Assembly: GCF_016432865.1 (NCBI RefSeq)
Contig: NC_067403.1
Coordinates: 261,578,001-261,642,000 of the forward strand
Length of the DNA: 64,000 nt
Source of the DNA: Antechinus flavipes
Taxonomy: Eukaryota
Direction of reading: 5' to 3'
Position 1 is the first letter of the stretch; every line of letters begins with the position of its first letter. A program made the translations under genes and the position numbers. Below are positions 4,265-52,482 of the stretch, one piece after another. The notes below the pieces were generated by a model that saw only the letters and a list, made by a program, of their open reading frames with translations, did no database searches and was not told the origin of the DNA.

Positions 4265-5137
4265 TCAGCGCGGCTCACTCCTTTTCTTTGTGTTTTTAAA
4301 CCCTCGGGTGGCCCCTTGGCCGAAGCAAATGGTGGAGGGGATCCTGCGGTTCTGGGCGCGCGGCTTCTCGGGGGCGGCCTCGGCGGGGCACACCTCCATG
4401 GCCTCCTCGCCCGCGGCCGGCCGGCCGGGCCCCCGGGCCTTGCGGGGCTGGTCGAAGCGGAAGTCGGGCGGGTAGCGGTGGGCGCGCACCAGGTGCTCCT
4501 TGCGCTCGCCGCTGCTGCGGAACTTGGCGGGGCAGCCCTCCACCAGGCACTGGTGCATGCTCTGCCGCTCGGCCAGGAGCTGGAAGAGCGAGTCGTGCCA
4601 CTCGAGGATGTGCACGTCCAGCAGGTGCGCCGACGGGAAGGAGCGCCGGCACACGGAGCACACGTGCGTGTGCAGCGTCCGGTAGTGGTGCTCGTAGCCC
4701 TCGAGGCTGGCGAACTCCTGCTGGCAGCCGGCCACGTGGCAGCCGAAGGTCGCCACGAGGGGGCGCTCGGGCACCTGGCAGACCTGAGTGATGACATCCT
4801 GCAAGTAGGCGTGCCTCTGCACATCCCCGTCCTGTGGAGCACAAGCGAGTGAGGCCCCCTCATTCAGCCCCGCCCTCGCCCCTTCTTCCAGAAGCAGGCC
4901 CCGCTCTAATCAAGAAAGGTCCCACCCCTCAGACTCGCTTCCGCCCCGGACCCCGCCCCGACCGCACGTGACCTCGAACAACGGGTGTCCCCGGGGCAGG
5001 CACTGGGTCCGCGGCGCGAAGCGAAAGGGGGCGGCCCCGGCGGCCGGGTGGCGGAGCACGGGCAGCGGGAGCGACTCGGAAAGGCTCCCGGCTGGGGCCG
5101 GGCCCAGGCGACCCTCCAGCCCCGGCGGCAGCTGCAT
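4265..5137 (-). CDS. ZNF511: Zinc finger protein 511, two exons (5137-4973 and 4831-4265), 243 aa
   Basis: MQLPPGLEGRL...AAGAAPFRFAPR...HPLFE | 141-bp GT-AG phase-0 intron (4972-4832) | DGDVQRHAYLQDV...HILEWHDSLFQLLAERQ...HRYPPDFRFD...RIPSTICFGQGATRGFK. It has three C2H2-type fingers and the ORF is intact. Confidence 0.95.
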
Positions 5138-10354: not shown

Positions 10355-13300
10355 CTACTCTTTCTCCAGCCCTCTGGATGAGGTCCCCGGGAGGCAGAGG
10401 CGGCACTGGAATCGGGTTTTCCAATCTTCGTCAGCGTGCTCCCTACTCACACACATGTGGTGGACCCAGCCCCGGCAGGACTCGCACTGCAGCTGGGAAG
10501 GGCAAAGTGGGATGGGGTCACGGGCGGCTCCGAGGGGAGGGGGCTTCTACCTGCCACCGAGTAATGGTTAATGCCCGGAGACCTCCAGTGGGGAGCGCTC
10601 AGCACCTTCCCGGGCTTCTGCTTGGGGGAGTTCCCATCCCCCACATTACGCCAGCCCCCATCTTCCCTCCTCGGTGCTGGAGAGCTTCCCCGGGCCCATC
10701 AGAGAATTCCAGCCTCCCGCTCCCCCCAAGCCCACTGGAATCGGGCCGGGGGAGAAGGCTCACCATGGTGAAGACGTCGCTGTTGCCGTCGTCCGTGAGC
10801 CGGTTGCAGTAGGAGCACGTGTCCTCCATGGTGACCGTCACCATGGGGCCCTTGTCCCCTTCCTGGGCGCTGTCCGGGGCCTCTGGGAGGCTGTCAAACG
10901 CGGACCAGATGTCGGTGTCCGAGTCCTCGGCGGAGGATTCCTCCAGGCTGTCCAGGTAGTCTTCGTCTTCGTCTTCCTCATCCTAGTGTGCAAAGGCAGC
11001 CGCGTCGGGAGCAACTTCAAATACCAAGGGGGAGCATTTCCCCACCCCCAGAAGGACGGGCCGGACTGGACTCGATTCCGCCACAAAATTCCATTTACAC
11101 CCCTTGGTTCTGCTGGGGGTTATTTGTTTGCTGAGGCAGTTGGGGCTAAGTGACTCGCCCGGGGTCACACAGGCAGGAAGTGAGACCAGAGAGGACTCGG
11201 CTCCTGACTTCGGGCTGGTGCTCCGTCCACTGCGCCACCAGCTGCCCGCCCGCCTTGGGTGTTAACAACCAATTCCCTGAGTTGCTTTCTTGTCCGGAGC
11301 CGCGGCAACATTCGGGCCTGGGCTCCGTGCGATAGAAAGAGCATCCCAAGGAATTGTGGCACCAGCCCCCGCTGCAAGGGGCCAGCAGGCTCCACACGGG
11401 GACTTTGCTGTGTTACATCAGGACAGCCTGCTGGGCCAAAGCCCGGGGCGGCCTCCAATACGGAGACCGGGGCCAAAGCCCTTACGGAGACCGGGGCCAA
11501 AGCCCCGGGCGGCCTCCAGTACGGAGACTGGGGCCAAAGCCCTTACGGAGACCAGGGCCAAAGCCCTTATGGAAACCAGGGCCAAAGCCCCGGGCGGCCT
11601 CCAAAATGGAGACAGGGGCCAAAGCCCTTAGGGAGACCGGGGCCAAAGCCCGGGGCGGCCTCCAGTACGGAGACCGGGACCAAAGCCCCAGGCAGCCTCC
11701 AAAATGGAGACCGGGGCCAAAACCCTTAGGGAGACCCCGGCCAAAGCCCTTATGGAGACCAGGGCCAAAGCCCTTACGGAGACCAAGACCAAAGCCCCGG
11801 GCAGCCTCCAAAATGGAGACTGGGGCCAAAACCCCGGGGGGCCTCCAGTACGGAGCCAGGATTGCTGCCCTTTCGGGCCCTTCAGTTTCCCCATCTATGA
11901 AGTGCTTCCTCCTAACAAGCCTTTTCCTAGAAGTCGGGGAGCACAGAGAAAGGGGTGAGGGGACCGTCCCTATATAATCGAGGGGGCGCAGGGAATCAGC
12001 CACGTGCCGGGGAAATAGCCTGGGACAGGGCAAAGGAAGAGCCAGAGGGCCAGAGCTCCCGAGCACCTCCACCTGCACCTCCACCTGCGCAGGAACTTGG
12101 ACGGCCGCCGGGGTAGAGGCTGCCCCACCCCCACTCCTGGTCGGCTCTCTATCCCCCCCCCTTCCCTTCCCAAACAGAGCTCGGCAGGCTTCCCTCAGCG
12201 AGGGGAGACCCCCGGGGGGGGGGGTCACTCACGTTGTACGAGTCCCGATTCTGCAGAAAGAGGATCTTCTGGAGCTGCAGGTCCCAGTCCACCTGGTTCA
12301 GATTCACCACCAGGGAGAGCAGGCTGCAAAGGGAGGGGGCAGCAGGGGAGCGTGTCCCAGGGTCACGGGAAGGGCGGGCGGGCAGCCAGGGAGAGCCCAG
12401 CCCCGCCATGGATCGGGCTCCGATCCAAACGCTTTTCAGACCGAATCCAAAGGCGAAAGAACTAGGCTGGAGTCTGGGCAACCTGATTTTGAATTGTGGC
12501 GCGTACCTCTGCCCTGGTGGGATTGGGGGAGACCCCTGAACTACCTGCCTCCACCGGAGCGCGAGAGAAACACCCCAGAAGCCTTGGGGCCCAACCAGGC
12601 TAGGAGAGCTCTCTGAAGGCCGGCCTTCCCATCCCCCAGTCCTAGCCCTGGAGACGGTGGGACCCGAACCTCCAGAGTCCGGCTCGCCCCAGTGGTGGGA
12701 CCTCGGAGAGAAGGCCGGGCTGGGCCCCTGCACGCCCCGACAGCCCCCGAGGTCACCAGGGCCCCGGGAGGAGCTGCAGGCCCGAAGCTGAGCCACCCCC
12801 AGGAAGGGGGGAGACCCTCCCCAGCCCCATCTTACCTGCGCACAAACGAGTTTGTCTTCTCCAGGAGCCCGTGCGCTTGGGGGTGATAGACGACAATCAG
12901 GTCGCACTTGACTTTTGTTTCCGCTCTCAAGATCTGATTGAGCTGAAAGAGCGGGTGGGAGGGAAGGAAAAGGGGGCTGCTGAGCCGGAAGCCTGGGAAT
13001 TAGAGATGGCGCAGGACCTCCGGGGGGCAAGGGGCCCCTGGGTGCTTATCTGCAGTGCTGGGCCTGGCTTATCGGTACCACTCCACAGGAGAGCGCGCAA
13101 GCTCCCCAAGTCCCAGAAACCATCCCCTAACACGAAGGTGGGGCCCGATGCCCAGCCAGCTCCGCCCCCCCCCCCACGCCCGGGATGCCCCCACACCTGC
13201 TGGACAAACCCGCCGCACTGGGTGCTGACGATCCTCTCCGGGAAGCCGAAGCGGTGCACCAGCTTGAGGATCTGCTCGGCCGTCTCCTCGGGGGAGCACG

Positions 13301-16300
13301 TCTTCATGGGGGCCACCTCCACCCAGCGGGTGTAGTGGTCCACCACCACGAAGATGAAACGCGCCCCCCGGGCCGTCTGCTTCATGGGCCCCACCAGCTG
13401 CAGGCCCACCAGGTGGAACAGGCCCCTGGCCTGGGGGCGAAGGGCGCGGTCAGGGCAGGAGCCGCAGCCGGCAGCGTGCCAGCCGGCGGGCACTGCCAGC
13501 ATGTTTGCCAGGCCCGATACGGGCTTGGAAGGGGCTCAGCAGGGGGAGGTACTTGGGAGCTGGGAGCCAGCAAGCCTGGGGTGCCAGACTCATAACCCAC
13601 CCTCCTAAGGGCTCAGTTTCCTCATCCGAACCCCCCAGCTGGTACTGTGGCAAGGCTGAAGGCACAGCCCGCGGCTCCGAACCCTGGCACTGACCAGCTG
13701 TGTGACCCCGGCGGTCTTCCCACGGGAGCCTCGAGAATTCCAGGGCCCCGGAGAAGCCTCTTCCCCAAGGACGTTGCCGCCAGCCCGGCTTCTGAGCTTC
13801 TCTGTGCCGTCCCCTCCTCCCCACCCTGGCACAGAAAAGGAGGGGCTCTTCCCTCCGATGCCCATCTAGGAGCAAATGCCCCTCCTCCCCACAGAGAACT
13901 GGGAGCTCACTGAAGGCAGGGGCGCCTCTGTCTGCTCCATCCCCTCTGAGCCCGGTGCAGGCCCACAGTAAATGGGGGCGAGTCCCACAAGTTCCCCTTC
14001 ACCCACTTATCTTAGAATGTGTTTGGGGGGACCCAAGGAGGACTTTGCCAGAGGGATGAGAACTCAGTCCTGGGGGGCAACTTGGCGGGGACCCCCTTCC
14101 TCACTGCCCCCGGTCTCTTTTAGGTGCAGCAGGTTCTTCGTACGCCCTGGCGCCCGACAAGGTACCTGGGCCGCAGGGAGCTCCCTTCGGGATTGGGGGG
14201 GCTCCTTCTTGGCCTTCAGCTCGGTCGTCGGCCCTTCTTTCTTAGGAGCGCGGGCCAGCTTGACTTTCTTGAAGGACTCAGTTTCCCCAATCTGTGAGGA
14301 CGAAGCACAAGGCTGGGGCTCCACCCAGGAGGGCATCTTGCCAAGGGGGAAAGAATGCCATTCTTGAGGAGGGGACCACGGAGGCGGCTGATTCCCTGCC
14401 TTTAGGGGGGCAAACACGGGCAGGAGCCCCCACCGCAGGCCCCCACTTACCTTATTAGCTCGGGTTTCCTTCTCTGCCAACTTGTCCTTCTGGCATTTCT
14501 TACACTCCTTGACCTGGAAGGGGGGGAGCGTCAGGCTTTCAGGCCGGGCCACCCCGACCTTCCCTGTCCCCCTCCTCTCTAGACCGAGCTTTGGCTGTTT
14601 TATTGAAGGGATTTGTGAAAACAATTCACCTTTTGAAAGGCGGCTGTGAAAAGTCTGGCCAGACCCACAACCAACATCCCTGGGTCAGGCAACAATATTC
14701 CTATTTTACAGCTGGAGAAACCGAGGCTCACAGAATGTGCCTTGCCAAGGGGACACCGCCAGCAAGTGAGAGTCAACCCCCAGCTCCCAGTCCAGGCGGC
14801 CCAGGTGTCAGGGACCCTGAGGGCACAGCCCCACCCCCCAACCCAGAGGCTCCGGGGCCCTAGGCAGAGTCTGCCCATCTGCGGGCTCTGCGAGGGGGCT
14901 GAGCTGCCTTAAAGGCGCGGAGAAAAGCTCCGAAGGGAAATCTCGGGAGCCTGAAGAGCAGCTGCCCGGTCAGCTGGGGGGGGGGGGGGGGGGGGGGGGG
15001 AGGGGAGGGTCAGCAGGGGCCGGGGGTCACTGTCCCGGCCAGAACCAACAGCAGCCCTCCAGTCCGGGGATTACCCAGCCCCCGGGGTCTCCAAGTGGGG
15101 TGGGCAGCTCAGAACTTTCCATAACGCGATTGTTGGCGCTTCTAACGTGTAAGAGCCAGAAACACCCGGGAGAAGCCAGAGGGGGCGGATTCCCATTAAT
15201 GTCGTCAGAGCGGACTGGGGGGCGGGGCCGGAGGAGGAGAAAACATCTTATATCTCCAGCCAATCAGCTGTGAGCCAAGGAACTCCTTAAATTCTCGAAA
15301 AAGGGGCTTAGGATCAAACTCCCCCAAACCCGCTGTGGTCCCGACTTAGGCGGAGGCTTTCCGGGGGAGGGCCGGCCAGCCTCGTTGCTACTCTGATGGC
15401 GAATCCCACCGATGGTAACCGGCCCCGGCTGTAAATCCCACCAATCCCAACCTTGGACCCCCGCCAGGGTAAAGCCGCGTCTCCCCCCTGAGTCCGCCTT
15501 GGAGGTTTGCGCAGTAAAGATGCTCCTCTGGCTCCTGGGCCAGTTACAGCTGCGGGAGGGAGGGAGGGCGGCCGCAGCCCGTCCGGGGCATGCTCCGCAG
15601 CCCTGCCCCCGCCCGCGGAGGCTTTTGGTAACATAACCAACTAAATCAGAGGTCTGGGGAAGGGGAGAGCAAGCAGCCGCCCCAAGACCAAAGGGGACTA
15701 CCCCGACCGTCGAGCTCCGGACCCTTTACAGCCCGACCTCGGGCTCCTGAAGGATCCGTTCACTCTCCTCCCCTTCGGGAACACTGAAGACGGGCGTCTA
15801 AACCACGGGAGCAACCCCGAACTGGGCGATTCCCGGAGGCGCCCGTCTGCACCCTTAACGTCTGCGCTACGCCTGAAAGGGCAGTTCTCTCCTCCCAAGG
15901 CAGACGGGCGGACAAGCGGGCAGGGGAAGGACAGGCGGACAAGCGGACGGGCGGAAGGACAGGAGGACAAATGGTCAGGAAGACAAGCCAACAGGCAGAG
16001 AAGGGGACAGGCGGGCAGGGGAAGGACAGGCGGGCAGGCCGACAGGCAGAGAAGGGCACAGGCGGGCAGGGGAAGGACAGGCGGGCAGGCCGACAGGCAG
16101 AGAAGGGAGCAGGCGGAAGGACAGGCGGACAGGCGGGCAGGGGAAGGACAGGCGGACAAGCGGGCGAAGGACAAGCGAGCAGGCCGACAGGCGGGCAGGC
16201 CGACAGGTAGAGAAGGCGGCGAAGGGCGGGCGGAAGGACAGGCGGACAGGCAAGTCGGCAGAAAGAAAGGCAAACCGCTGGGACAGGAGTTCCTTTCTTT

Positions 16301-19300
16301 CCCAGAGGCCGCCTGGCAAAGAGACAGCTCTGCCCGGGTCCTGCTGAGGGTCCCGGCATTTCTCCCTTTCACCATCCGCGCAAACTTCAGTCACTCAGCT
16401 TGAGACGAAGAGGACGGAATCGTGGGATTGGGAGAGACCCCCGCGAACTGCCGCTTCCCCTCCCCCCTCCCAGGCGCTGGCTGGGCTTCTGTGGGCCGCA
16501 GGACCTGCCCGCATTAGGGGCGCGACCCGACATTTGCAGCTGGAAGTGGGCGCGAGGCTTCGCTCAGCGAAGAGCCGAACAGGGCGCCCCTCCCACTTCT
16601 CCGGGCACAAAATTGGGGTAGAATTGTCAGCCTCGGGGCGGACTCTCCCACAGAGTGGGGGTGGGGGAGGGGAAGCCCCAAAGATTGGCTTTGGAAATGC
16701 TCCTTAGGGGAGGGGCGGAAAGAGAGAGAGAGGCGCGTTCCGGCTCCAGGTTATTCTAAAGCCACTTGGGGAGCCAGCGCGCTTTTAGGTCAATTTAAAT
16801 TTTAAATAGGAACCGCGGGCTCCTTTCCGGCCCAAAAGAAACAAAGGGAGGGTCCAGCCTCTCCCCCCCATCCCCCAAAGGAAGGAGTGACCGCTGGGAT
16901 TGCTTTCAAAGAAACCCGGCCCATTGGCCTCCACTTGAAAGCCCCCAAGGTCCCACTTTGCGCCCCGCTCCCCAGCAGCCGGCCCTTGTAAAAATGGGCC
17001 GCAAGGTTTGAATGGGCCGTGGACGGGCGATTCTAGCAGACTGTCTAACGGTGTGTCCGTGTATTTTAACATATTTAACATGTATCTGTCTACCTGCCCT
17101 CCGGGGGAGGGGCGGGGGGGAGGGGAAGGATGGGAAAAGCTGGAACAAAGTTTTGCTGAAAAGTTACCCTGCATGTTCATGTTTTGTAAATAAAAATCTT
17201 TGCAGAAAGGGGGGGGGGGGCAGCTAGTTGGTGTAGTGGGCAGAGCACTAGCTCTGAAGTCAGGAGGACTGAGTTCAAATCTCACCTTAAGCGCTACTTC
17301 CTGGCTGTGGGACCCTGGGCAAGTCACAACCCCGAATCCTCAGCAAAAATACTTTTTTAGAAGAGGCAATTCTTGCTTCGACTTGGCCGTTAGGGGCAGG
17401 GACGGGAGCGAATGTCCCTAAGGGTCTGGGTTCGGCGGCTGAGCCCCGAGCCAATGCTGGCCCTGGGCAGGCAGCGCCCTTTCGGGGCCCCCACTTTCAG
17501 AGTAGTCAGAAGGCTCCAGACGAAGGAGGGCGGGCGGGAAAGGCCGAGGCGGAGGGGCTCTCTGGCTTTTCCCGATCCAGGCTCCTTGTTGGGCATCAGC
17601 CTGGCGCCCCCTGCTCAGCAGCGGTTACATTGCCCCCCAAACCGGGATTCCAAAGGAAAGCCAATCTGGGAATCTCCCGGGGTGAGGGCCCCAAGTTCAG
17701 AAACCCTCCGGGGGGTGGGGGAGGGAATAAATGGCTCGGCAAAAGGAGCCCGGGATTTGGGCGGAGGCCAAGGCAGAGGCAGCTCCCCCAAGGAGGAAAT
17801 CTCGTTGGAGGCCCAGAGTCTGAAGAGACGTTGCCAGAGAGGAGGCCCCTGCGCCCCCCCCTCCCCCCACAAAGAACCGAGTTCCGCCTGTGGCCAAAAG
17901 CGAGCTCTCCTTACCCATTTCCGGGAGTCGTAAACCACCCCGGGCCAGTAGTAGGACTTGGTGACATTGCCCCCGGTCTTGCGGATGCCCAGGTGCCCCC
18001 GCTCGGAGATGTGGGCCTCCAGGAACGCCTGCCTCTTCTCCTCCAAAGTGAAAAGGATCTTCTGCTTCTTCCCTCGGCCCTTGTAGTAAAGGTGATTCCC
18101 TGGCGAAAGAGCCAAAGCCCCGAGCGGCCTCGTGAGACCCCGGAGCTTACCCCCCACCCCACCCCCCGGCGGTGACCTTGGCCCTCGACCTCTGCCCTCT
18201 GGGCCTCTGTTCCAGCAGCAGCCGGTTCCCAAGTCCACGGACACTCTCAGCCCTGGACTGGAGGAGGAGGAGGAGGACCCCGGGGTCCTGATTGCCCAGC
18301 AATGCCCCCCCCTCCCCAAAGACTGCACAGCAAAAAGCACTTACCAGCCCAGTCCTGCTGGGGGGGAGGGGGAGATAGGTGAGAGCAAAATACCCGGGGG
18401 GGGGGGGTCAGGAAGGAGCCGGGTTTGCCCCTTTGAGGCTTCCTTTGAAAGGAATCCCGGCTGTCACTCCTCCCCTCCCCTCCCGGAGGAGCCTGGGACC
18501 TGCCTCTGGGTCCTTTTTGCCAGACCTGAGCCCACGGTTCCCATTTACAAATTTAAAACCGGGCTGTGTGACCCTGGGCAAGTCCCTTACCCCGCCTGCC
18601 TCAGCCAAGAAACACAAAAGCCAGGGAAGCAGGTGGGGGCAGCTGGGAAGGGGGGGGGGTTCGGGAGAGGGCACAGAGGCTGGGATGGGGGGGGCCATCC
18701 TCCAGCGCCTCAGCTGGAGGGAGGGACGAGGATACAGCGGTTTAGTGGCCGATTATTGGCCGCCTTTTATTATGTCAATGGCCTCCCCAGTATTTCAATG
18801 GCTTCCTCCTGCCTTCCTCCCCCGCTCACTTTTCTCCCTCCCGCTGCCCCCCCTCCGGCCTTTGGACTTGCTGAGTCCTGGGGGGGGGGAGAATGGGGGG
18901 ATGTTACTCTCCCCCCCAACACACACACACAGAGCCCTACAAATTACCCCCCATCTCCTCCCCTCGGAATCGCCAGGACTCCCCCGCGGCCAGACGCGCC
19001 CCCCAGTATTTGCTCTTCTATCTGGATGCCCCTAAAGACGGGGCAGCAGGCGGAAGCGGCCCCTCTGCGCTCGGGCCGGGGCCTCCCTACCTGCCACCCC
19101 CAGCTGTGCTCCCCTCGGTCTGCAGGGCCTTGAAGCCCCTTCCCCCTGCGTCTCCTCGGACCCCTCCCCCAAGCTTCCCACAGTGCCCGGCACAGAGTGG
19201 GCTTCCCCCCCCAGGAGACCCACGGGAGCAAGCTCCGGGGGGCACCAGCCTTTGTTCGGCCCAGAACTGGAGAGCAGCCGAGGGGGGGAGCAGCCGGGCC

Positions 19301-19791
19301 AGGGCGCGATAAGGGCTGGGGTGCGGCCGGGCCGGGGGCACAGTAAGGGCCAGAGAGGGCAGGAGGACCCCTGGGCTTCTAGCCACCGACCTCCGGCCAC
19401 AGGTGAGGGGGGAGGGGTCTGCGCTGGGAGCTTTGACCTAGTCTAGGAGGAGGCAGCTTGGGTTCAGGAACTGGGGGGAGGGGAAAGGCCATCCAAGGTC
19501 AAGTTCTGGGGCCCAGTGAGGGCTGAGGAGCTCCCGGCAGGAGAGAGACACTGACCTTCCTGGAAGAAATTGGCCTTCTGCAGCAGCTGCCTCCTCAGAG
19601 CCTCCGGGGAAGAGCCGGCCTTCAGAAGCTGCAGAGCCGTGGCCTGGGGGGAAGGAAGCGGCCGTCGGGGAGGGGGGCTGGGGCCCGGGCCTGCGGCGCG
19701 CCCCCCCCTCCCCGCCGCACCTGGCTCACCGGCCGCCCCCCACCCCCCCCTGCCCCCTGCTCACCTGGCGCTCCCTCCGAAGGGACTCCAT
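10355..19791 (-). CDS. GIN/Ginger1-like integrase-PHD gene, copy A (about 425 aa, 10 coding exons)
   Basis: Exons with GT/AG sites and matching phase: 19791-19765 (MESLRRERQ); 19643-19556 (ATALQLLKAGSS...NFFQE/G); 18099-17915 (NHLYYKG...EAHISERGHLG...YYWPGVVYDSRKW); 14513-14451 (VKECKKC...); 14291-14166 (basic linker); 13430-13197 (ARGLFHLVGLQLVGP...VDHYTRWVE...RFGFPERIVSTQCGGFVQQ); 12942-12836 (LNQIL...YHPQAHGLLEKTNSFVR); 12323-12233 (...VDWDLQLQKILFLQNRDSYN); 10982-10764 (acidic linker, EDTCSYC...FTM); 10492-10355 (LQCESCRGWVHHMC...FQCRLC...*). No stops or frameshifts. Confidence 0.88.
11127..11250 (-). mobile_element. tRNA-derived SINE (WSINE1-like)
   Basis: The reverse complement reads gggcagctggtggcgcagtggacggagcaccagcccgaagtcaggagccgagtc...gtgtgaccccgggcgagtcacttagccccaactgcctcagcaaa, with A and B boxes. 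Confidence 0.85.
11433..11852. repeat. Composite minisatellite (37-bp and 24-bp units), intronic in copy A
   Basis: Interspersed ggccaaagcccggggcggcctccaatacggagaccg(g) and ggccaaagcccttacggagaccgg units. Confidence 0.92.
15895..16265. repeat. Purine-rich gacaggcgggcagg-type minisatellite in a copy A intron
   Basis: Repeated gacaggcgggcaggcc, ggggaaggacagg and cagagaaggg modules. Confidence 0.9.
17040..17195 (+). mobile_element. L1 3' terminal fragment
   Basis: acatatttaacatgtat...gggggagggg...ggaacaaagttttgc...aaataaaaa. Confidence 0.7.
17218..17350 (+). mobile_element. tRNA-derived SINE (WSINE1-like)
   Basis: gggcagctagttggtgtagtgggcagagcactagctctgaagtcaggaggactgagttcaaatc...cctcagcaaaaa. 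Confidence 0.85.
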
Positions 19792-23584: not shown

Positions 23585-23590
23585 TTTATT
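23585..23590 (-). terminator. Candidate polyadenylation signal of copy B (a second candidate lies at 23182-23187)
   Basis: AATAAA on -, about 440 nt downstream of the stop codon at 24030. Confidence 0.5.
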
Positions 23591-24029
23591 ATTCCTCGGC
23601 CTCCGCTCTCTGCCTCTTAGCCTGAGGCTATGGGACTTTTGGCTTCCGTGCCCGAGGCTCTCAGGAGGACTTTGTAAGTCATTGTGTGTGTTGGGGCGGG
23701 GCACGTGTGGGGGGGTGGGGGTGGGGCAGAGCAGGTCGGGGTTCCAGGCGGCTGCAGGGAGTCCCGGCCCCTTTTGTGGGGAGGGGGGGAGAGAGACCTT
23801 TCCTGTGCTCTGGGGGATGATCACTGGAGGAAAGGCAGAGCGGGGAGGAGGGAGCCGGAGGGAGGAAGGCCTTTGGGCCCCTTGGAGCCCAGGGACCAGC
23901 CTCCCCTCCATATTCTAGGACCCGCCTCCAGAGGGAGCCGGGCGTGGGGGAGGGGGGCAGAAAGCGCCCCCCCCCCCAATGGCTCAGGCCGTCGCCCCCA
24001 CAGCCGCACTCACCCCTGCGGCGGCCCCC

Positions 24030-27000
24030 TCACTCTGGGCCGGAGCCGGGCCCGGGGAAGCAGGCTCTGCAGCGGAACGCGCTCCTCCAGCCGTCGCCTC
24101 TGTACCACCGCTGCACGCAGGTGCGATGGGCCCAGGACTGGCAGGCGCCGCACTGCAGCTGGGAAACCGGGCAGGCTCTGGGGGGGCCGGCGCGGATCGC
24201 CCCCCTCCCCACAAAGCAGAGGGGCTCCCTGAGCTGCCCCCCCAGGGGCAGTGGGGTCCTTCAGGGACAGATTCCACCGGACCCCAGGGCTTCCTCCTGA
24301 GGTGGCCACGTCCCTCCCTGACGTGACCCGGGAGGTTGTGGCCCCCGGTCCGTCCCCCAGGAAAGCCGGGTCAGACGCAGCGGGGAGACCCCCGCATTCA
24401 GGCAGGGAGCACGCTGGGAGGGGGGGTCCCCGGAAGCAGGGGCGCGGGCTGACTCACCATGGTGAAAACTTCGCTGTTGCCTCTGTCGGCGAGCTGGTCG
24501 CAGTAGGGACACGTGTCCTCCACGCCGAGGGCGGCCACCACGACCGGCTCCGCGTCCTCGTCCGGGGACGGCTCCGAGGCCGAGGGGAAGGGAGCGGGGG
24601 GCACGGCGTCGTCACCCTCCAAGTCTCCCTCCGACCTCTCCTCCGAGCCCAGGTCGTCTTCCTCCGACTCGTTCTCCGCCTGGGGGGCGAGACCAGAACC
24701 TCAGCCCTGCCCCCAGCCCGGGCTTCCTGCCCTTCCTTTCCTGCTCCCAAGCCCTTCTGGGGTCTCTGCTCCGCCCGCGGACGGTGGAGGACCCGGCCCC
24801 GACGCCCCCGGTCCGGCCTGCGCCTTCCCCCTCCCTCCCGGGCCTTCTCCCCCTCCCCCAGGCCTTCCCCCTCCCTCCCGGGCCTTCCCCCTCCCTCCCG
24901 GGCTCTCCATCATCTCTGGGGCCAGGCGGAGGCGGAGCGTTTCTCATCTCCCTGTGACGCTGAGGCAGGAGGCAAGTGCCCGACCCTGGGGCTCTGGGCT
25001 CCCCCCCTCCCCACGCCAAGCCCAAGGCTCCGCCCCGAGCCACTGACTGACACCCCTCCAGCCTCCCAGACCGTCCCAGGGTCAGAGGTCACGGCTTCTG
25101 GACGAACCATTGGGTGTCACCGAGCGAACTCGGACAAACCGACCTGCGGCTCAGCCCGGGAGCCGGCCAGGGGAGGCCCAGGTGCCCCAGGAGTCCCTGA
25201 GGAGGCCGTCTCCCTTCTCTCCTGGGAACCTCCCCCGGCGCCGCGCCCAGGAAGCCCCTGGAGCTCATTAGGGCAGAGCCCCCCGGGCAGGGCTGAGCCC
25301 CCGCCTCTCCCCCCAAGCCCCAGCCGCCTGTGAGCCCCGGCGCGGAGGCCTCCCCCAAGGCAGAGGCCCCAGGAGCGGGGGCAGGAGGAGCCTCACCTGC
25401 ATCTGCAGGAAGAGAACGTTTGGCAGCTCCAGGTCCCAGTTGGCCGTGTTCCCTCTCACCACCAACGTGAGCAGCCTGAAAACCAAAGCAGTTTGTTGGG
25501 GTTCCACGGGGGGGGGCGTCCCCGGCGGCGGCCCTCCCTCACCTCTGCACGAAGGCGTTGGTCATCTCCAGGAGCCCGTGCGTCCGGGGCCGGTAGTTGG
25601 CTACGAGGTCACACTGGAGGTCGGCCCGGATCCTCAGGATCTGATTCAGCTGCGAGAGACGGGGGATGGGAGGCCGGCGGGGAGGAGGCCGCGGGTGGGC
25701 ACAGTCCCCGTCCCTCAGCCTCAGGGCCTCCTCCTGAACCGGCTCCGGACTAACCGGCCACCGGTAAAGGGAGCCCGGGGCTGGCGTCTCCCCCTCTGCT
25801 CCCCAGCAAAGGGGATTCTGCCGCACAGCCTTCGGCCCTCCCCGGTCTGGGGCCCAGAAAGTTCTCGCCCGGTTCTCCCAAGCTGAGCCGGCCCCCCACT
25901 CTCCTGTCCGCCCCCCCCCCCCGCACTTCCGGGGCCGGCCCAACCAGCCAGGCCCCCGATTACCAACAGGCTCCCCGAGCCCCCAATTACCAACAGGCCC
26001 CCTGATTACCCACAGGCCCCTGATTACTGACAGGCCCCTGAGCCCCCGATTACCCACAGGCCCCTGATTACTGACAGGCCCCGAGCCCCCAATTACCGAC
26101 AGGCCCCTGATTACCCACAGGCCCCTGATTACCGACAGGCCCCTGATTACCCACAGGCCCCCCACATCTGGGCCCCCATTACCCACAGGCCCCTGATTAC
26201 CCACAGGCCCCTGAGCCCCCAATTACCAACAGGCCCCCCACATCTGGGCCCCAGAGGGCCGCACCCCGGGCCGGACGCCTCCGCACCTGCCGGACAAAGT
26301 CGCCGCTCTGGGTGCAGACGATCCTCTCCGGGAAGGCGAAGCGGTACACCAGCTTGAGCACCTGCTCGGCCGTCTCCTCGGGGGAGCACGTCTTCATGGG
26401 GGCCGCCTCCACCCAGCGGGTGTAGTGGTCCACCACCACGAAGATGAAGCAGGCTCCCCGGGGCGTCTGCTCCATGGGCCCCACCAGCTGCAGGCCCACC
26501 AGGTGGAACAGGCCCCTGGCCTGGGGGCGAAGGGCGCGGTCAGGGCAACCGCGGGCACCACGCAGCCAAGGAGCTGGGGGCGGCCCCTGATCTGCCCCCC
26601 GGGCGCTTCCCACCCCTGGTACCCAGAAGGCTGGTGCGGACAAGGGCGGTACCCAGAGAACCCGTGGCTCAGCATCCGGCCCTGCCGCTGGGCACAGCCT
26701 GCCCGCCACTCCTGGCAGTGCCCACCCGAAGGGCACCAGATCTCGCCCCTCTCTTCCACACTGACCCAACGAGCTCGGAGCCCTGCCTCCCCTCCTCCCA
26801 TCCCTCGGAGGCCATTGACCACTCCCAGAATCCCCTCCCAGGCCCAGTCCGGTAGACGTGTGATGGGCACCAATGCCCCCTCGCCGGAGAAAGGGGAAAG
26901 CGGCGTACCTGGGCTGTCAGGGCCTCTTTCTTGGGGGCCACCGCAGCTGGGGGCGGGAGTCTCAGGGGGGGCGAGACGGACGGCCGCTCCCTGAGCCGAG

Positions 27001-28777
27001 CCGCCGGGGCCACTCCCTTACACTTCTTAGCTCTGACCTAGGAACCAGCAGGAGGCGTCTGCAGGAGACTCCGAGAAAGACTGTCTCCCCCGCCCAGCCC
27101 CCTGCTCCCCTCAGAGCCCCCCCCAGCTCTGCCCGCAGGCCTCCCCGGCCCTTACCCTGGCACTCTGGGCCTCCTGCTTTGCTAACTTGTCTCTCTGGCA
27201 CTTCTTACACTCCTTCACCTGGGGATGGGAGAGCCCGAGCTGAAGCGGGGGTGGGGGGCTGGCCTCCGGTTCGTGACCTCCCCTCCCCTCCCCCCCAGCC
27301 GTCACTCGAATCCTGGGCCCTTCCTATGGGCGCCTTCCCGCCAGCACCCCGGGGGCGGGGGGGAAGGAGGAGGGGGATGCTCCAGCAGCTCCCAAGGTGG
27401 AAGGAGGCCCTGCGGGAACCTGGGCTTCCCGGAGGTGGAGCTGCCCAGCTGGGCGCTGCCAGGGAGGGGCCGAGGACAAGAGGTGACCTTCCAGCCACAG
27501 AGCGGGGCACGGAGCCCAGAAAGGGAGGCTGGGAGCGGGCCGGCCCCGTGCAAGGGCTCGGATTGTCCGGCGGCTCCTGGGAGCCTCCGTCCGTCCCTCC
27601 CTGCCGGGGACCCCCTCCCCTGGGGCCCCGAAGCTCAGCCTCTCTGGTTTCCCGGCAGGAAACGGGGATCACGCCGGCCGGGCCCTCACCCACTGCCGCG
27701 CGTGCAGCGTGATCCGGGGCCAGTAGTAGGACTTGGTGATGTTGATGCCGGTGGCCCGGATGCCGTGGTGCCGCTCGGCCGAGACCACGTGGGCCTCCTC
27801 GAAGGCTTCCCGCTTCTTCTCCGGGGTGAAGAGCACTCTCTGGAACTTGCCTTTGCCCTGGTAGTACAGCACGCCGCCTGGGGGCAAGCAGGCCCGCTGG
27901 GCGCCCAGGACCGGCTCAGGGCCCCCCCAGACTGCTCTCTCTGCCCCCCCCATCGGGGCTCGGCCGCCCCCTCTGGGCCGGAGGCCGGTGCCCCCCATCC
28001 GGAAGCTGCTGATCGAGGCCCGTCTCTCACTGCCCCAAACGGGGGCCTCCTTGCCTGCCGCCCCGCGGGCGTTTTCAGTCCTTTCCCATCTCTGTGGCAA
28101 AGACATTGCCGCAATTTCCTTTTCCACCCATTTTACAGATGAGGAAACTGAGCGGCTAGGAAGGGTCTGAGACTGGATTTGAACCAGGAACAGGAGCCTG
28201 ACTCCAGACCGGGCACTCCTGGCCCCCGAACAATAAGAAGGCCCCGAACCTTTGGGGTTCTACGTCCCCAGGCCTCCTGCCTAGAGGATGGCTTCCCCAC
28301 AGGTGGGCAGAGCAGCCTTCCTCCTCCAGGCCCGGCTCTCCCATCCTTCCTTCCCTTTAAGGGAAGCTTGGGAAGCCACAAGCCGCCCCCCCCCCCCACG
28401 GCCTTCCCTCCCCCCGGACACCCAGGCCCTCCTCCTGCCCGGTTAGGGAAGAGCGAGACCCAGGGCGTCCGAGGCCTGGGGACAGGGATGGGATCCGGAG
28501 CCCTGAGGTCCCCTGGGACGGGCTGGGAGCCAGCTCAGGACCCTGTCACAGGGAGGTCCACAAGCCCCCGGCAGCTGCTCGTACAGTGGTCAAGATCACG
28601 GCCGAGGGGCCCTGGCCGGAGTCACACACGCGGTCCGCGGCTTCGCGGAGAGCCGGACACCCTGGGCTGTATCCCGGGGCCGGAGAAACACTGACCTTCC
28701 AGGACAAAATTGGAGTTCCGACTCAGCTTCCTTTTGACGGAAGGGGTCGGGGAAGAGGTCATCCTCAAAAGCTCCAT
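24030..28777 (-). CDS. GIN/Ginger1-like integrase-PHD gene, copy B (about 410 aa, 9 coding exons)
   Basis: Exons: 28777-28696 (MELLRMTSS...NSNFVLE/G); 27877-27690 (GVLYYQG...EAHVVSAERHHG...YYWP...RQW); 27218-27156 (VKECKKC); 27037-26909 (linker); 26520-26287 (core 1); 25649-25543 (LNQIL...THGLLEMTNAFVQ); 25475-25397 (ANWDLELPNVLFLQMQ); 24679-24458 (acidic linker, EDTCPYC...FTM); 24158-24030 (LQCGACQSWAHRTC...FRCRAC...*). All junctions are GT/AG and in phase, with no disruptions. Confidence 0.9.
25955..26240. repeat. Minisatellite of about 18-26-bp units, intronic in copy B
   Basis: Repeated gcccctgattacccacag and gccccgagcccccaattaccgacag. Confidence 0.92.
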
Positions 28778-38434: not shown

Positions 38435-41400
38435 ATGGGCCCAGCGGTGCAGGCCGGGGAGTCGGGGAGCCTGGCTCCTGTACGGGCCGCCCAGGTGCCG
38501 AGTGCTCCGGGTCTGGGCTCCCCGGGGGCCGCCCAGGTGCCGGGTGTTCCGGGTCTGGGCAGCCCGGGGGCCACCCAGGTGCCAGGTGTTCCAGGTCTGG
38601 GCTCCCCGGGGGCCACTCAGGTGCCAGGTGTTCCAGGTCTGGGCTTCCCGGGGGCCGCCCAGGTGCCAGGTGTTCCGGGTCTGGGCTCCCCGGGGGCCGC
38701 CCAGGTGCCAGGTGTTCCGGGTCTGGGCTCCCCGGGGGCCACCCAGGTGCCAGGCGCTCCGGCTCTGAGCTCCCCGGGGCTGGCCTCTGGGGATGCCCTT
38801 CCAAAGGCAGGATCTTCCTTGAAGACGAGACGTTCTGCGAAAGGTGGGTGTCTCTACAGACTTTTTGGGCGGACGCGGCTGCAGGAGCTCGGCCGAGGGA
38901 GGGCCCCTGAATCGGACCGTTAGCTCCCGCTGGCACCGGCCTGGCACCTGGAGAGGTGGCGGCTGTCAGGAAAGGCCCTCGGTGGATGGCAGGGCTGAGG
39001 TGGGCCGCGGGCAGCCAGCCAGTTCTGTCTCCCCTAGAGGACGCCTTCTACAGCCGGAGGAGAAATCGGAACCAGAAGTTTCTCTTCCTCGAGGCGGAGA
39101 AGAAGAAGGCCTTTTGGGAGGCCCACGTGGTGCAGCACAGGCACTACGGCGCGCGGACCACCTGCACCCACCTCAGGAAGAAGTACTACTGGCCGGGCAT
39201 GGCCCTCGACGTCAAGAAGTGGGTAGGAGCGGGTACGGGGAGGGCGGGCAGCCGGTTGGCACGGGGGCATCCCGATCCTGCCTCAGAACCCCCGGCAGGC
39301 GACCCTGGCCAGCTGTGTTCTCAGGCACCTGGGCCCCCATGGCCCCGAGCTCCCCCTGGATCCTCTGGCCTTGGCCAGGCTGCTCCCTCATGAGTCCAGG
39401 GGCTGGACCCCAATGGACAGTGACGGCCCTAGAAGAGGCGCTCAGGGGGCTGGGGGGCTGGGCCTGGATCCCCTAGGGAGCCCCTCCCTCTGGGGATTTC
39501 ATCCAGCTTGACCTTAACCCAGGAATAGGCTGACTGGGGAGACTTGGTGGACCCAACCTGCCATGGGCAGACAGCTGAGAGCTCACCCACTGCCCGGGGC
39601 CTGTGCCCATCAGCAAGAGGGATTGGGGATGGGGAGGGGCACTGCCCAGAGGGGCGACCTCGGCTGGGGCCCTCAAGTTCAGTTTACCCCTCTATACAGT
39701 GGGTACTGTGTGGGGCAAGCCCTTGTGGATCACTGACTGTCCGGTCTGCGCAAGTCCTTGCAACGTGAATGGGAAGTGCCCACGAGAGCGGGGGAGCAGG
39801 TCGGGGGCCGCCAGCCCCCTCCCATCTCTGGGCGGACCCAGAAGCCCTGTGCTCTCCTCACCCCCAGGTCAAGATGTGCAGGAGATGCCTAGACAAAAGC
39901 ATACGGACCGCGGCCCACAATGCCCTGGTAGGTGCCTCAATGGGGGGCCCACGGGGCAGATGGCTGGGACTGGGGCTGAGAGGGTCAGGAACCTTCTTAG
40001 CCTCCTGGAAGCAAGGGCATGGGGGGATGGGGGAGTCCTGTCCCTCTCTCTCACCCTCCTGGAAGCAAGGGCATGGGGGGATGGGGGAGTCCTGTCCCCC
40101 TCTCTCACCCTCCTGGAAGCGGGGGGATGGGGGAGTCCTGTCCCCTCTCTCACCCTCCTGGAAGCGGGGGGATGGGGGAGTCCTGTCCCCCTCTCTCACC
40201 CTCCTGGAAGCGGGGGAATGGGGGAGTCCTGTCCCTCTCTCTCACCCTCCTGGAAGCGGGGGGATGGGGGAGTTCTGTCCCCCTCTCTCACCCTCCTGGA
40301 AGCGGGGGGATGGGGGAGTTCTGTTCCCCTCTCTCACCCTCCTGGAAGCAAGGGCATGGGGGGATGGGGGAGTCCTGTCCCCCTCTCTCACCCTCCTGGA
40401 AGCTGGGGCGTGGGGGGATGCCCCTCTCTTGCCCGGATGGGGTCATTTGCTGCTTCCCCTCGGTTTGAAGGAAGCCGGATCGCAGCAAGCGCCTCAAGGA
40501 GACGGCAGGATGGATCACTTCCCGCTAGCCCAGGTACCGGGGCGGGGGCAGCGGGGGAAGGGGTTCTGGTTTCTGGCAGCTCCAGAGCTGGGGTGGATCA
40601 TTTTTAGTTGTTCTTTTCTCATCAGCAGAAGTTGCACGTTCTCTCCCCTCAAGGAGGGAGACCCAAAGCAGCCCCGCGAGGCGCTCTCTGTCCCTCCCCC
40701 CGGGCTGCCACTTCTGTGCCCGGGTGGGGCCGGGGAATCTTTACCTCCTTGGGGCCAGTTCAGGGGAGCGAGGGTCCATCATCGGCTCCTCCCCACCCTT
40801 ACACAGGCTTCTCTCTTTGGTGCCCCTGGCGCCCAGGCTTCCTTCCTGCCCCCGTCCCACACAGTTCCCCCCGGGCTTTCCCTGAGTGTTTCCTTGTGCT
40901 CGCCGAGCCCCTATCCGAGCCCGGGCTCTTCTCCCCCCTCCGCAGGAACAAGGGCTCTTCACCTTTGTCAGCTTGCAGCTCCTGGGGCCCCTGCGGCAGA
41001 CGGCCCAGGGATTCTGCTTCGCCTTCGTGGCCGTGGACTACTTCACCAAGTGGGTGCGCGCCGCGCCCATGCATTCCTGCTCCGTCAGGGAGACCAGCGC
41101 GCAGATCCTGGAGCTGGTGAAGAGGTTCGGGTTGCCAGAAGGGATCATCAGCACCGCGTCGAGCAGTTTCATCCTCCAGGTATGAAGGCGCCATCGTGGC
41201 CCCAAGTGGCCCACGGTCAGGGCCGGGGCTGCAGGGAGCAGGAAGCGAGATCCTGGCCCCTTAGCGCCACAGCTCAGCCGGGACGCTGGGCTGGGGGGCT
41301 CTCGACCCCGAACGTTCTCCTGGGGAGTCCCTGTTTGCCTCCGTCTCCCCTGGATGGGAGGGGGGCGAAGATGGGGGCAAACGGGGCCTGTATTGAATGC

Positions 41401-44218
41401 TGGGCATCCTGACCAGGCAAGCTGGGTGCGGGAGTGGGATGCTCAGCATGAGAGAGGCAGTAAAGCGCGGCGAGCAGGGAGTGCCGGGCAGGAGCGGTGT
41501 ACGGTGCTGGAGGCAGGTGGGGACTGGCAGGGCGGCCTCAGGAAGGGGCAGCTCCGGGCCTGCTGGGCACTGCGCCGGCCCCCACACACACACATTCTTG
41601 CCACATAATCATCCTTCTCATTCCCTTTTCTGTGAAATACCACCCGGTGACAAAACGTTCCGCCACATGCCGGGAATGGGCGTTCCTCTGAGTTTCTGAT
41701 TCTCGGCCCCCACAGAAAGGGACGCTTTAACACTTGGGTCTACGTAGGCCCCTTTGCTTTTCTGCTTCGGAGATAACAGGTCCAGGCTGGGCCGGCACTG
41801 GATCAGAGACACGCAGTTTAGGGCCTGAAGGCAGAGGTAGCTCTGGATTGCTTTCCAAAGGGACCACAGCTCCACCAACCATGTAGCAGTGTTCCTCGTG
41901 GCCTCGCCAACAACTTGCATTTTCGTTTTTTGTCATCTTGAGCCACTGGTTCCCATTGGAACCTGAAAATTCTTCTTTGGTCTTGCAACTCTTTAATTCT
42001 TCATGCTTTTGTGTATTGGGGGGGGGGGGGATGTTTTGGGTTTTTAAATTTTTGTTTTTGATACAGATTTTGAGAACTTGCATTTTTTTTCCTAAAAGCT
42101 TCCTTGCAGAGTTGCCTCGACACAAAGGAGAGAGCGTGGCTACCTGCCCTTATGGAGCCCAAGAACCCCCTGGGGACTGAAACTAATAGAAGTTAGCTAG
42201 CTAGCACCTCAGATATCCTAACAGCATGTTGGGTTGCCTTGTGCGTAAGGGAGTAAGTTCCCCATCATCCAAGGAATCCAAGAAATTAGATTTTCTTTTG
42301 CGTCTAGGGGAGGTCCCTTGAAACTGGAATGGCAGCCCAGCCACCACCTCTTGTGACTGGAGCTTCTGCCCTTCTGCCTCGAACCCCAGAGTGGCCATAG
42401 CTTCCTTGGCCCCTCTCTTCTGATTAATTGGGGTTTTGGTCTTATTCTTTCAGATAAACAAATTTTTGAAAATGGCTTTGAAAATGCAAAACAGCCTGGT
42501 TGTTAAATACAATCCCCAAACAGATGGGTGCCTGAAAAGCATCAGGTCCTTTGTGACTAGGTGAGCTTCACCCGGGATGGGGGGACAGGCTGGGGGCCCC
42601 GTGGTCTGAGCAGCTTCTCCCTGTCACCTCCCCTTGGATCCTGATGGGCCCCAGAGGAGCGGGTGGCCACCTAAGCAGGCTGTGGAGGGTGTGCCCATCC
42701 GGATGGAGCTGCCCGTGTGCCTGTGTTGCCCACTTAAGTGGGCCATGGTGGGCGTGTCCACCCAGATGGAGCTTCTCATGCTGCCTATATAAGTGGGATA
42801 TGATGGCATGCCCATCCAGATGGAGCTGCCCGTGTGCCCGTGTTGCCTACTTAAGTGGGCCGTGGTGGGCGTGCCCATCCAAAGGTGCCCGTGGCCCCGG
42901 GAGGGCCCGCACTAAGCCCTGGCTGTAGACACGACCCGGCCCTTTGGGCCCCCACATTTCAGGATCCTTTCTCTGGTGCTGATCATGAACCCGACCGACT
43001 GGGACCACCACCTGCATAAGATTTTCTTCCTCCAGAACCGGTGTTCGGACTACTTCGTAAGTGCTTGGCTGGCAAGGCCGGCCTCCCCCTGGAGGGGGCA
43101 CCTCTGGGCTAAGGGCCACTCGGCTGGTCAGGCGGACGGGCTTGGGAAGGAGGAGGTGTGAGTGTGGGGCTTGGAGGCAGGTCTTGGGGCCCCTTCGGGA
43201 GCAGTCCTGGGCCAGCCCGGCTCTGTCCTGGGCCCCGTGGCCTCTGCCTCAGTCATCACTTGTCACGCTCCCCAGACGCCTCCTAGCTGGGCGAGACACT
43301 TCATGGTGCTTCCCTCAGTTTCCTCATCTGTAAAATGGGAGAAGGAAATGGCCAAGCCCCCCAGTGTCTGCCAAGAAAGCCGCGAATGGGGCCATGGACA
43401 GACACAACTGGAGACTATTGGACAAAAACTGGGGGAAAGCGGAGGGGGTCCGGTTGTGGGACTGCGGCCGGGACGACGTGATCCATAGAACTGGATGGCG
43501 GGTGAGGGCCGGAGAGCGGGCTGTGTCCAGGGGACTCGGGCCTGACCCACAGGCCTCGTCCCGTCTCCGTCTCTAGGAGGAGGAAGACGAGGGTGACCTG
43601 AGGAAGCTCCATGGCGAGTCACCAGGGGCTGCCTGGGCCCCACCCCCGCGGGTCCCAGAGCCCCCACAGCCCTCCCCAGAAAGCCAGAGGGACCCCCCGG
43701 CCAAAGCCCAGGGCGAGGACACCTGTTTGTATTGTTGCCGGCTCCCGGACGAGGGGGACAGTGACGTGTTTGCCGTGGTGAGTGGGCCAGCCCGGGCCCC
43801 TGAGGAAGGCAGACCCTGCCTGGTCCTGGCTCTGGGGGGGAGGGCTTGCGGACTCCTGGAGGGCAGGACAGGGAGGGAAGGGACAGGGCTTAGCTGGGAA
43901 GGAAAGGGGGATGCCCCTGCCACCCACCACCCCCACTCACGCGTGGACCTTGTCCCCTCCCCCCAGGTGCAGTGCGACAGGTGCCCGGCGTGGGCCCACG
44001 AGCAGTGTGTGCGGAGGCAGCTTGGACGGGTGGACCCCAAAATTAGCCTCCGCTGCAAAACCTGCCTCCTGGCAGTTGTTGGGGCGCAGCCAGGGCCCCA
44101 GACCCCCAGGGCTCTGGGAGCGGGGGACGGCGGGGCAGGCAGCGTGGGGCCCGCGGGGGGGCCGGGCCCCCAGCGTGGCCCAGGTGTGCCCAGCCATCAG
44201 CTTCCCCCTTCCAAGTAG
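38435..44218 (+). CDS. GIN/Ginger1-like integrase-PHD gene, copy C (534 aa from the ATG at 38435; up to about 953 aa with the upstream repeat exon)
   Basis: Exons: 38417-38843 (...LPKAGSSLKTRRSAK/G); 39038-39222 (DAFYSRRR...EAHVVQHRHYG...YYWPGMALDVKKW); 39868-39927 (VKMCRRC); 40471-40533 (linker ending LAQ); 40946-41179 (EQGLFTFVSLQLLGP...VDYFTKWV...RFGLPEGIISTASSSFILQ); 42454-42560 (INKFL...YNPQTDGCLKSIRSFVT); 42963-43056 (NPTDWDHHLHKIFFLQNR); 43577-43777 (EDTCLYC); 43967-44218 (VQCDRCPAWAHEQC...LRCKTC...*). The core exons have the same lengths as in A (185, 234 and 107 nt). Confidence 0.9.
38488..38780 (+). repeat. 42-bp coding tandem repeat (about 6.5 copies) in copy C
   Basis: Unit encodes PGLGSPGAAQVPGV. 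Confidence 0.92.
40008..40410. repeat. ~46-bp minisatellite (about 8 copies), intronic in copy C
   Basis: ggggggatgggggagtcctgtccccctctctcaccctcctggaagc; some units carry an extra aagggcat. Confidence 0.92.
42690..42890. repeat. Imperfect ~54-63-bp tandem repeat (about 3.3 copies), intronic in copy C
   Basis: gtgcccatcc.gatggagctgcccgtgtgcc.gtgttgcc.acttaagtgggcc.tggtgggc. Confidence 0.8.
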
Positions 44219-49846: not shown

Positions 49847-49849
49847 GTA

Positions 49850-49980
49850 AGGGCTCAGTATTTGGCAAAAACTGCCGGGAAAACTGGAAACTAATATGGC
49901 AGAAACTGGGCACTGACCCTCACCTCACCTCCTGTACCAAGATAAGGTGGAAATGGGTTCATGATTCCGACATAAAGCAT
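49850..49980 (+). mobile_element. L1 ORF2 fragment
   Basis: Encodes ...KNCRENWKLIWQKLGTDPHLTSCTKIRWKWVHD.... Confidence 0.85.
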
Positions 49981-52040: not shown

Positions 52041-52093
52041 AAGAGTGAGATTATAAGCTGATTCGAAGAAGTTATGTTGCTTCTCTCCAGGAC

Positions 52094-52435: not shown

Positions 52436-52482
<47 letters not shown>

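Follow-up and report, generated by a model that had tools for sequence, protein, structure and literature searches.

A marsupial gene cluster, likely derived from a Ginger1-type transposase, joins an integrase core without catalytic aspartates to a PHD finger

Ginger1 DNA transposases and the host genes related to them are the closest described systems to the genes reported here. The Ginger1-9_HM transposase carries a PHD finger (PMC2836005, Table 1), and three introns are common to Gin-1, Gin-2 and Ginger1-5_HM (PMC2836005). The marsupial catalogue consulted (PMC3670739) names GIN1/2, SCAND3, KRBA2 and NYNRIN as the only integrase-type domesticated genes, and describes integrase-derived genes as having remained single or grouped in small families. 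Ginger2 is the source of SCAND3 and KRBA2 (PMC3575427). In a 64,000-nucleotide stretch of the genome of Antechinus flavipes, a dasyurid marsupial (contig NC_067403.1, positions 261,578,001 to 261,642,000 of the forward strand; this whole stretch is the window), motif scans found three gene copies, which we call A, B and C. From N- to C-terminus, all three proteins carry an HHCC zinc domain (PF17921) joined by a linker to a dead integrase core, and then an acidic linker leading to a C4-H-C3 PHD finger. No prior description of the A/B/C family was found in the literature searched, though an earlier mention could still stand in table S1 of the PMC3670739 supplement. Databases label proteins of this type uncharacterized or "GIN1-like". 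A/B/C is apparently a real, undescribed marsupial gene family.

In integrases and transposases with an Asp-Asp-Glu (DDE) triad, both aspartates are needed to hold the catalytic metals. An earlier note on this DNA had claimed that the triad was replaced in all three copies, placing the claim at 12836..13430, which we found to be two exons of gene A on the minus strand (13430-13197 and 12942-12836). The core exons were as follows.

13197..13430, minus strand: core exon 1 of A (78 codons), with Gln in the first Asp column at 13400-13398 and Thr in the second Asp column at 13223-13221
12836..12942, minus strand: core exon 2 of A, with the YHPQ loop and the retained Glu at 12861-12859
26287..26520, minus strand: core exon 1 of B, with Gln at 26490-26488 and Thr at 26313-26311; the retained Glu is in the next exon at 25568-25566
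40946..41179, plus strand: core exon 1 of C, with Gln at 40976-40978 and Thr at 41153-41155; Lys stands in the Glu column in the next exon at 42535-42537

The columns were read from a residue alignment of 65 proteins, of which 12 were A/B/C rows taken from the window and from six named species of marsupial. The register was sound: D, D and E were present in 35 of the 45 non-host relatives in the same alignment, and the profile placed the same triad positions on Ty3 and prototype foamy virus (PFV) integrase. The residues reported earlier were confirmed: A and B have Q/T/E, with the Glu in GLLEKTN and GLLEMTN, and C has Q/T/K, with the Lys in GCLKSIR (Gln codon CAG, Thr codon ACC). The claim that the triad was replaced in every copy went too far, as only C lacks all three acids. 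Glu was found in 9 of the 12 A/B/C rows, including C of tammar and koala. The first Asp column was Gln in all 11 A/B/C rows covering it, and the second contained no Asp in any of the 12 (Thr in nine, Ala in two and Cys in one). The alignment indicates that the two aspartates were lost early, and the Glu later in some C lineages. With both aspartates gone, the core should not hold catalytic metals.

A and B are not independent witnesses of this loss, since their core exon has been gene-converted. The tract was delimited as follows.

13169..13457, shared with 26259-26547: gene-conversion tract of 289 nt, 91% identical, including the splice acceptor

Core exon 1 was 93% identical between A and B, whereas the other five exon segments compared were 63-80% identical. 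The synonymous divergence (dS) was 0.07 in core exon 1, compared with 1.1 and 0.73 in two other segments. Grouping by species was seen at 5 of the 7 sites in core exon 1 that were informative with wombat, but at 1 of 69 such sites outside it (Fisher p 7e-6). The comparison indicates that core exon 1 was homogenised separately in the antechinus and wombat lineages, while two gene-specific A/B residues persist in the converted exon. This hints at a need for the two cores to remain compatible. C is the independent witness for the early loss, and the alignment supports the proposal that catalysis was lost before the triplication.

The earlier note had also held that the fold and its motifs were kept, and had suggested a structural comparison. 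The core is 136 residues long in each protein (PF00665, a weak match) and matched Ty3 integrase by sequence with an E value of 1.6e-11. AlphaFold with 46 sequences gave a confident zinc domain and core, with a predicted local distance difference test score (pLDDT) mostly >85 in the core. The modelled core matched residues 118-257 of PFV integrase with a Z score of 16.8 and a root mean square deviation of 2.3 A over 136 residues. The models indicate that the RNase H-like core fold is kept, as proposed. The motifs stood in part: HHCC and WDxxL are kept, while YHPQ is found only in A (YRPR in B, YNPQ in C), B has RFAxP, and C has VDYFTKW and KRFGLP. The SPF..L.G motif, which ends the core in GIN2, in many Ginger relatives and in a fourth gene, D, described below, was absent from 12 of 12 A/B/C rows, although many relatives with short or divergent sequences likewise escaped the pattern. 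No GPY/F domain was found after the core in A/B/C, where the WDxxL helix ends the core and the acidic linker follows. The GPY/F domain mediates multimerisation (PMC2836005), and its absence, with that of the core end, weakens the suggested multimerising scaffold. Neither these losses nor the PHD finger in all three proteins is mentioned in the earlier claim.

The zinc domains and PHD fingers lie at the following positions.

14451..18099, minus strand: HHCC zinc domain of A, with His-His in 18099-17915 and Cys-Cys in 14513-14451
27877-27156, minus strand: HHCC zinc domain of B
39038-39927, plus strand: HHCC zinc domain of C
10385..10832, minus strand: PHD finger (C4-H-C3) of A, split by a phase-0 intron
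24051..24526, minus strand: PHD finger of B, with the same phase-0 intron as A
43709..44074, plus strand: PHD finger of C, with the same phase-0 intron as A

PF17921 scored above the cut-off in the A and C exons and in full orthologs, and the HHCC ligands were kept in all 10 A/B/C rows covering them. The linker after the zinc domain is basic in A and B (17 Lys/Arg in 58 residues), so that a nuclear signal might lie within it. PF00628 matched the devil ortholog of A (E 2.3e-5, 24.7 bits against a cut-off of 24), and all eight PHD zinc ligands were present in 10 of the 11 A/B/C-type rows. An Asp two residues before the first Cys and a Trp before the His are also kept. The closest solved PHD fingers are those of the chromatin proteins PHF20, EBS, PHF2, MLL (PHD3) and BPTF, all weak matches (E 0.003-0.5). 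An HHCC-core-PHD cluster was matched in the ESM Atlas with a score of 0.84, which is a lead only, as are all Atlas matches scored <0.9. A host donor of the PHD finger was not found in the antechinus genome in a search with the second PHD exon only (five candidates scored). Since Ginger1-9_HM has a PHD finger and one Ginger1-like non-host relative (P0055, Logan) ends in half of one, the transposon itself probably brought it in.

A, B and C are almost certainly intact, working host genes. Each was modelled with an open frame and with every intron GT-AG.

10355..19791, minus strand: gene A, 10 coding exons, 425 aa (exons 19791-19765, 19643-19556, 18099-17915, 14513-14451, 14291-14166, 13430-13197, 12942-12836, 12323-12233, 10982-10764, 10492-10355)
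24030..28777, minus strand: gene B, 9 coding exons, 410 aa (exons 28777-28696, 27877-27690, 27218-27156, 27037-26909, 26520-26287, 25649-25543, 25475-25397, 24679-24458, 24158-24030)
38435..44218, plus strand: gene C, 9 coding exons, 534 aa (exons 38435-38843, 39038-39222, 39868-39927, 40471-40533, 40946-41179, 42454-42560, 42963-43056, 43577-43777, 43967-44218)

Orthologs of A were found in devil, wombat and tammar, orthologs of B in devil and wombat, and C-type proteins in devil, bilby, tammar and koala. Exons 1 and 4 are the least certain parts of the C model; the predicted first coding exon carries a 42-nt repeat (minisatellite 38442-38821), which is shorter in the devil protein. That the genes are pseudogenes or an assembly duplicate was rejected on their open frames, their orthologs and the divergence of their exons. 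The close homologs among the matches listed came from marsupials only (devil, antechinus, bilby, wombat, koala and tammar). Opossum, monotremes, placentals, birds and reptiles contributed no A/B/C protein to those matches, but as these were 150 of 27,901 profile matches and the word-based searches are insensitive, this absence is weak.

Transcription of A and B was examined in contigs from four public runs, of which one is recorded as RNA, two are guessed and one is of unknown type. Among the joints listed, 8 of the 9 introns of A and at least 4 of the 8 coding introns of B were joined. Intron 1 of A is joined in a processed copy. The run contigs match A to within a few letters in each exon, whereas identity is 59-77% for the processed copies, so the contigs do not represent retrocopies. 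Just past the stop codon of B, 23302-24018 was skipped in contigs of three runs, with an AATAAA at 23187; this is a probable intron of the B 3' untranslated region, its ends being uncertain. Processed copies were found for A (two), C (two) and D (one); the dispersed copies of A and C are intronless and broken.

G000:C3:277.51 Mb, C2:221.57 Mb, C1:241.67 Mb and C1:413.34 Mb: four processed pseudogenes, two each of A and C

The copy at C3 lacks exon 5 of A, which suggests an exon-skipped isoform of A. Since processed copies are inherited, they point to germ-line mRNA. The identity of A to wombat/tammar is 89-93% in the core; it is 98% to the wombat zinc domain and 94% in the PHD finger. For the B ortholog the values are 80% (core), 82% (zinc domain) and 58% (PHD finger), and the C core is 66-71% identical between orders. 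Between A and a related organism, 17 of 21 coding differences were silent, and 14 of 15 in the zinc and core exons (40 of 195 rows listed). These comparisons indicate that A is under purifying selection and strongly conserved rather than fast-evolving, and the earlier view that the genes were retained agrees with this.

Introns and trees argue for a Ginger1 rather than a retroviral origin, and A/B/C likely descend from a Ginger1-type DNA transposase. In the trees they cluster with Ginger1 transposases rather than Gypsy, the exact sister not being settled, and their closest non-host relatives (non-marsupial and non-Gypsy, among the matches listed) are Ginger1-like proteins of fish, frog and turtle. 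Three introns are common to A/B/C and the antechinus GIN2; two of them fall in the modelled part of GIN1, and both are shared there, one after the KW motif and one after the first core exon. These may be the three introns published as common to Gin-1, Gin-2 and Ginger1-5_HM. A retroviral or Gypsy origin was rejected on the introns and trees; multi-domain Gypsy polyproteins nevertheless score high in the profile search through repeated domains. A mobile Ginger1 element was also rejected, as no inverted repeat of at least 40 nt flanks any single gene and the dispersed copies are intronless and broken. Two other proteins, P0055 (Logan) and P0073 (reedfish), are fish-type Ginger1-derived proteins that lost the second Asp and the Glu and have a long insert before the core; they stand apart from A/B/C and are a parallel case. 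In a frog (Bombina, P0060), a Ginger1 integrase is fused to phosphopantothenoylcysteine decarboxylase.

The antechinus genome has its own GIN1 at G000:C1:206.44 Mb with D, D and E intact (own-genome search). A/B/C were rejected as GIN1 orthologs, since their triad is not intact and the grouping with GIN1 was rejected (approximately unbiased (AU) test, p 0.02); their core exon is 26-28% identical to GIN1. The antechinus GIN2 was found at G000:C1:693.09 Mb (693.086-693.093), between OGFOD2 and a gene that we take to be ABCB9 (no Pfam match on the exon tested); its first and second Asp columns hold Glu and Ser, respectively. The published location of GIN2 is between OGFOD2 and ABCB9 (PMC3424704), and A/B/C were rejected as GIN2 orthologs because this place holds another gene. 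A long open frame with RNase H and integrase parts was also seen at G000:C2:515.48 Mb. This is presumably NYNRIN/CGIN1.

Gene D lies at G000:C1:715.33 Mb (715.328-715.339) between a TBC-domain gene and CASTOR, and a GIN2 identity of this gene was dropped on its neighbours. It has the triad G/T/S, has often lost the second zinc Cys and carries a Gln/Pro-rich repeat tail. Orthologs were found in opossum, tammar, glider, devil and dunnart, with a core identity of 84-90% from dunnart to tammar and opossum. D and A/B/C have in common a 234-nt core exon and, following the Glu helix, a phase-2 intron; GIN1 and GIN2 have neither. They were joined at 95/94 in a 24-row tree, which kept 24 of the 63 rows of a larger tree after distant and redundant rows were dropped and contained no endogenous retrovirus (ERV) integrase. 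When A/B/C were placed without D, or D without A/B/C, both stayed near GIN2 and the vertebrate Ginger1 group, so that long-branch attraction is neither proven nor removed.

It is possible, though we hold it unlikely, that A/B/C and D are duplicates of GIN2, which would place the loss of the second Asp in early vertebrates instead of marsupials. The second Asp column reads Thr-Gln-Ser in a fish GIN2-type protein, as in B, and GIN2 is without the second Asp (PMC3424704); GIN2 is also the nearest non-cluster host gene to the A zinc exon (43%), and the grouping of A/B/C/D with GIN2 stands in the AU test (p 0.39). However, GIN2 has two core introns absent from A/B/C/D, which in turn have two absent from GIN2, and the grouping appeared in only 144 of 1000 bootstrap trees, with only two GIN2 sequences in the tree.

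We consider the A/B/C proteins to be non-catalytic chromatin adaptors, with a probability of about 0.5 on the sequence evidence. An intron-bearing Ginger1 transposase gene would have been fixed in early marsupials and given rise to D and the A/B/C ancestor. Both aspartates would have been lost before the triplication, leaving no metal-dependent cutting or joining. The basic zinc domain, the basic linker and the core would hold DNA or a partner, while the PHD finger would engage the histone H3 tail. Expression would include the germ line, processed copies being inherited, and A and B, which differ in zinc domain and PHD finger, may form pairs via their homogenised cores.

Several observations weigh against this. 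PF00628 is below the Pfam cut-off for A/B/C proteins other than the devil ortholog of A, the PHD part of the AlphaFold model is of moderate confidence (a PHD-focused model had a mean pLDDT of 49.6), and the koala C PHD finger lacks the second Cys. Acids before the first Cys are typical of readers of unmodified H3K4, and the Trp belongs to H3K4me3 cages (PMC3241642); the A/B/C fingers mix signs of H3K4me3 readers (Met in A/B, Trp) with those of unmodified-H3K4 readers (the acids before Cys1). Some PHD fingers bind no histone (PMC9640981). Gene D is the sister of A/B/C yet has no PHD finger, this sister relation joins two long branches, and the alternative grouping with GIN2 was not rejected. 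The best-studied analogue, Imagin, is cytosolic in oocytes (PMC12863088).

The last point favors another explanation, in which A/B/C are germ-cell RNA- or protein-binding factors outside chromatin and the PHD finger is an interaction or structural module. Imagin is Ginger1-derived, without DDE and with HHCC kept, and its protein is in the oocyte cytosol (PMC12863088); the processed copies imply germ-line transcripts of A/B/C as well. We nevertheless find this rather doubtful, since the PHD residues at H3-binding positions are invariant, the A PHD finger is 94% identical across orders and the basic linker could take the protein to the nucleus. Alternatively, the proteins could have repressed their own Ginger1 family by binding element ends or active transposase, and later been kept for a host role. 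DDE-intact Ginger1 relatives occur in fish, Ginger1 relics are known from alligator, turtle, coelacanth and frog (PMC9004415), and a dead transposase with a chromatin reader would be a plausible silencer. However, no DDE-intact Ginger1-like element except GIN1 was found among the best candidates of the own-genome searches, yet A is strongly conserved, which makes such a role improbable.

The earlier note had favored dominant-negative inhibitors of retroviral integrases, that is, decoys entering integrase multimers and restricting infection or ERV movement. The integrase fold is kept, C is fast-evolving (its core being 66-71% identical between orders), both the genome and the window contain ERV remains, and a defensive role was proposed without evidence for GIN1, GIN2 and CGIN1 (PMC3575427). 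Yet the origin appears to be of Ginger1 type, and A/B/C are 34-39% identical to own-genome ERV-type integrase matches (partial) against 48% to D. The end of the core and GPY/F are gone, highly conserved A shows purifying selection and no arms race, and the attached PHD finger is left unexplained; we regard the decoy role as quite improbable. A residual nuclease acting through the retained Glu and other acids is more improbable still. Glu is kept in most A/B/C rows, but both aspartates are replaced, none of the four residues following the second Asp column of A is acidic, and the conserved Asp of VDxxT is no new ligand, as DDE-intact relatives have it too.

A more detailed form of the chromatin adaptor reading can be drawn, and we offer it as distinctly speculative. 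A/B/C would be marsupial-only germ-line chromatin readers, with A and B as a pair whose cores are kept alike by recurrent conversion and whose zinc domains and PHD fingers differ in the DNA and the H3K4 states that they recognise, steering the silencing of mobile DNA or of early-development genes. The cluster would lie inside a region that in placentals is, we presume, the KCNQ1-CDKN1C imprinted domain, where the mouse presumably has Tnfrsf22/23/26. No marsupial study of this region was found in the literature searched, and CpG ratios of 0.45-0.54 at the gene starts showed no clear island.

The A/B/C cluster is flanked by a gene with PH and oxysterol-binding domains and a cysteinyl-tRNA synthetase gene, which we take to be OSBPL5 and CARS1. 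Tumor necrosis factor receptor-like exons follow gene C at 46100-56400. They form two or more duplicated blocks (PF00020 at 52512-52925), and similar sequence continues past the right end of the window. Broken ERV pol/env-like remains are present at 62372-64000 (a murine leukemia virus-type integrase C-terminal domain, weak Pfam match). At 4265-4909 on the minus strand is a C2H2 zinc-finger gene, mostly of one exon, which we take to resemble ZNF511; a near-intronless relative at G000:C2:684.9 Mb is 43-49% identical. Other GC-rich minisatellites are at 30474-31661 (51-nt units), 11403-11882 (24/37-nt) and 39967-40470 (54-nt).

Compared with known systems, A/B/C are most like GIN2, a Ginger1-derived host gene with HHCC kept, DDE decayed and three intron positions in common. 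They differ from it in core introns, in the lost core end and in location; GIN2 forms a clade of its own, and no PHD finger was found in a fish GIN2-type protein. GIN1 belongs to the same superfamily and shares two introns, but its triad is intact, the grouping is rejected and core-exon identity is low. Imagin of malacostracan crustaceans is also multi-exon and under purifying selection (PMC12863088), but it is a single-copy gene, and a PHD finger is nowhere mentioned in that source; the comparison is by description only. Ginger1 transposases resemble A/B/C in HHCC, integrase core, introns and, in Ginger1-9_HM, the PHD finger (PMC2836005), whereas A/B/C have no DDE, GPY/F, OTU, Ulp1 or long flanking inverted repeat and sit at a fixed locus. 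As functional analogies, RAG2, SETMAR and SCAND3/KRBA2 are likewise transposon-derived host proteins joined to chromatin modules, but come from different transposase families. The loss of DDE is thus ordinary, as in GIN2 and Imagin; what is new is the PHD finger, the fourth gene D and the concerted core. The locus adds a three-gene cluster and its relative D to the marsupial catalogue, and in the literature searched no vertebrate GIN gene is described as having a PHD finger. Should A/B/C indeed serve as germ-line readers of histone marks, they would be the marsupial equivalent of the lineage-specific transposon-derived regulators of placentals.

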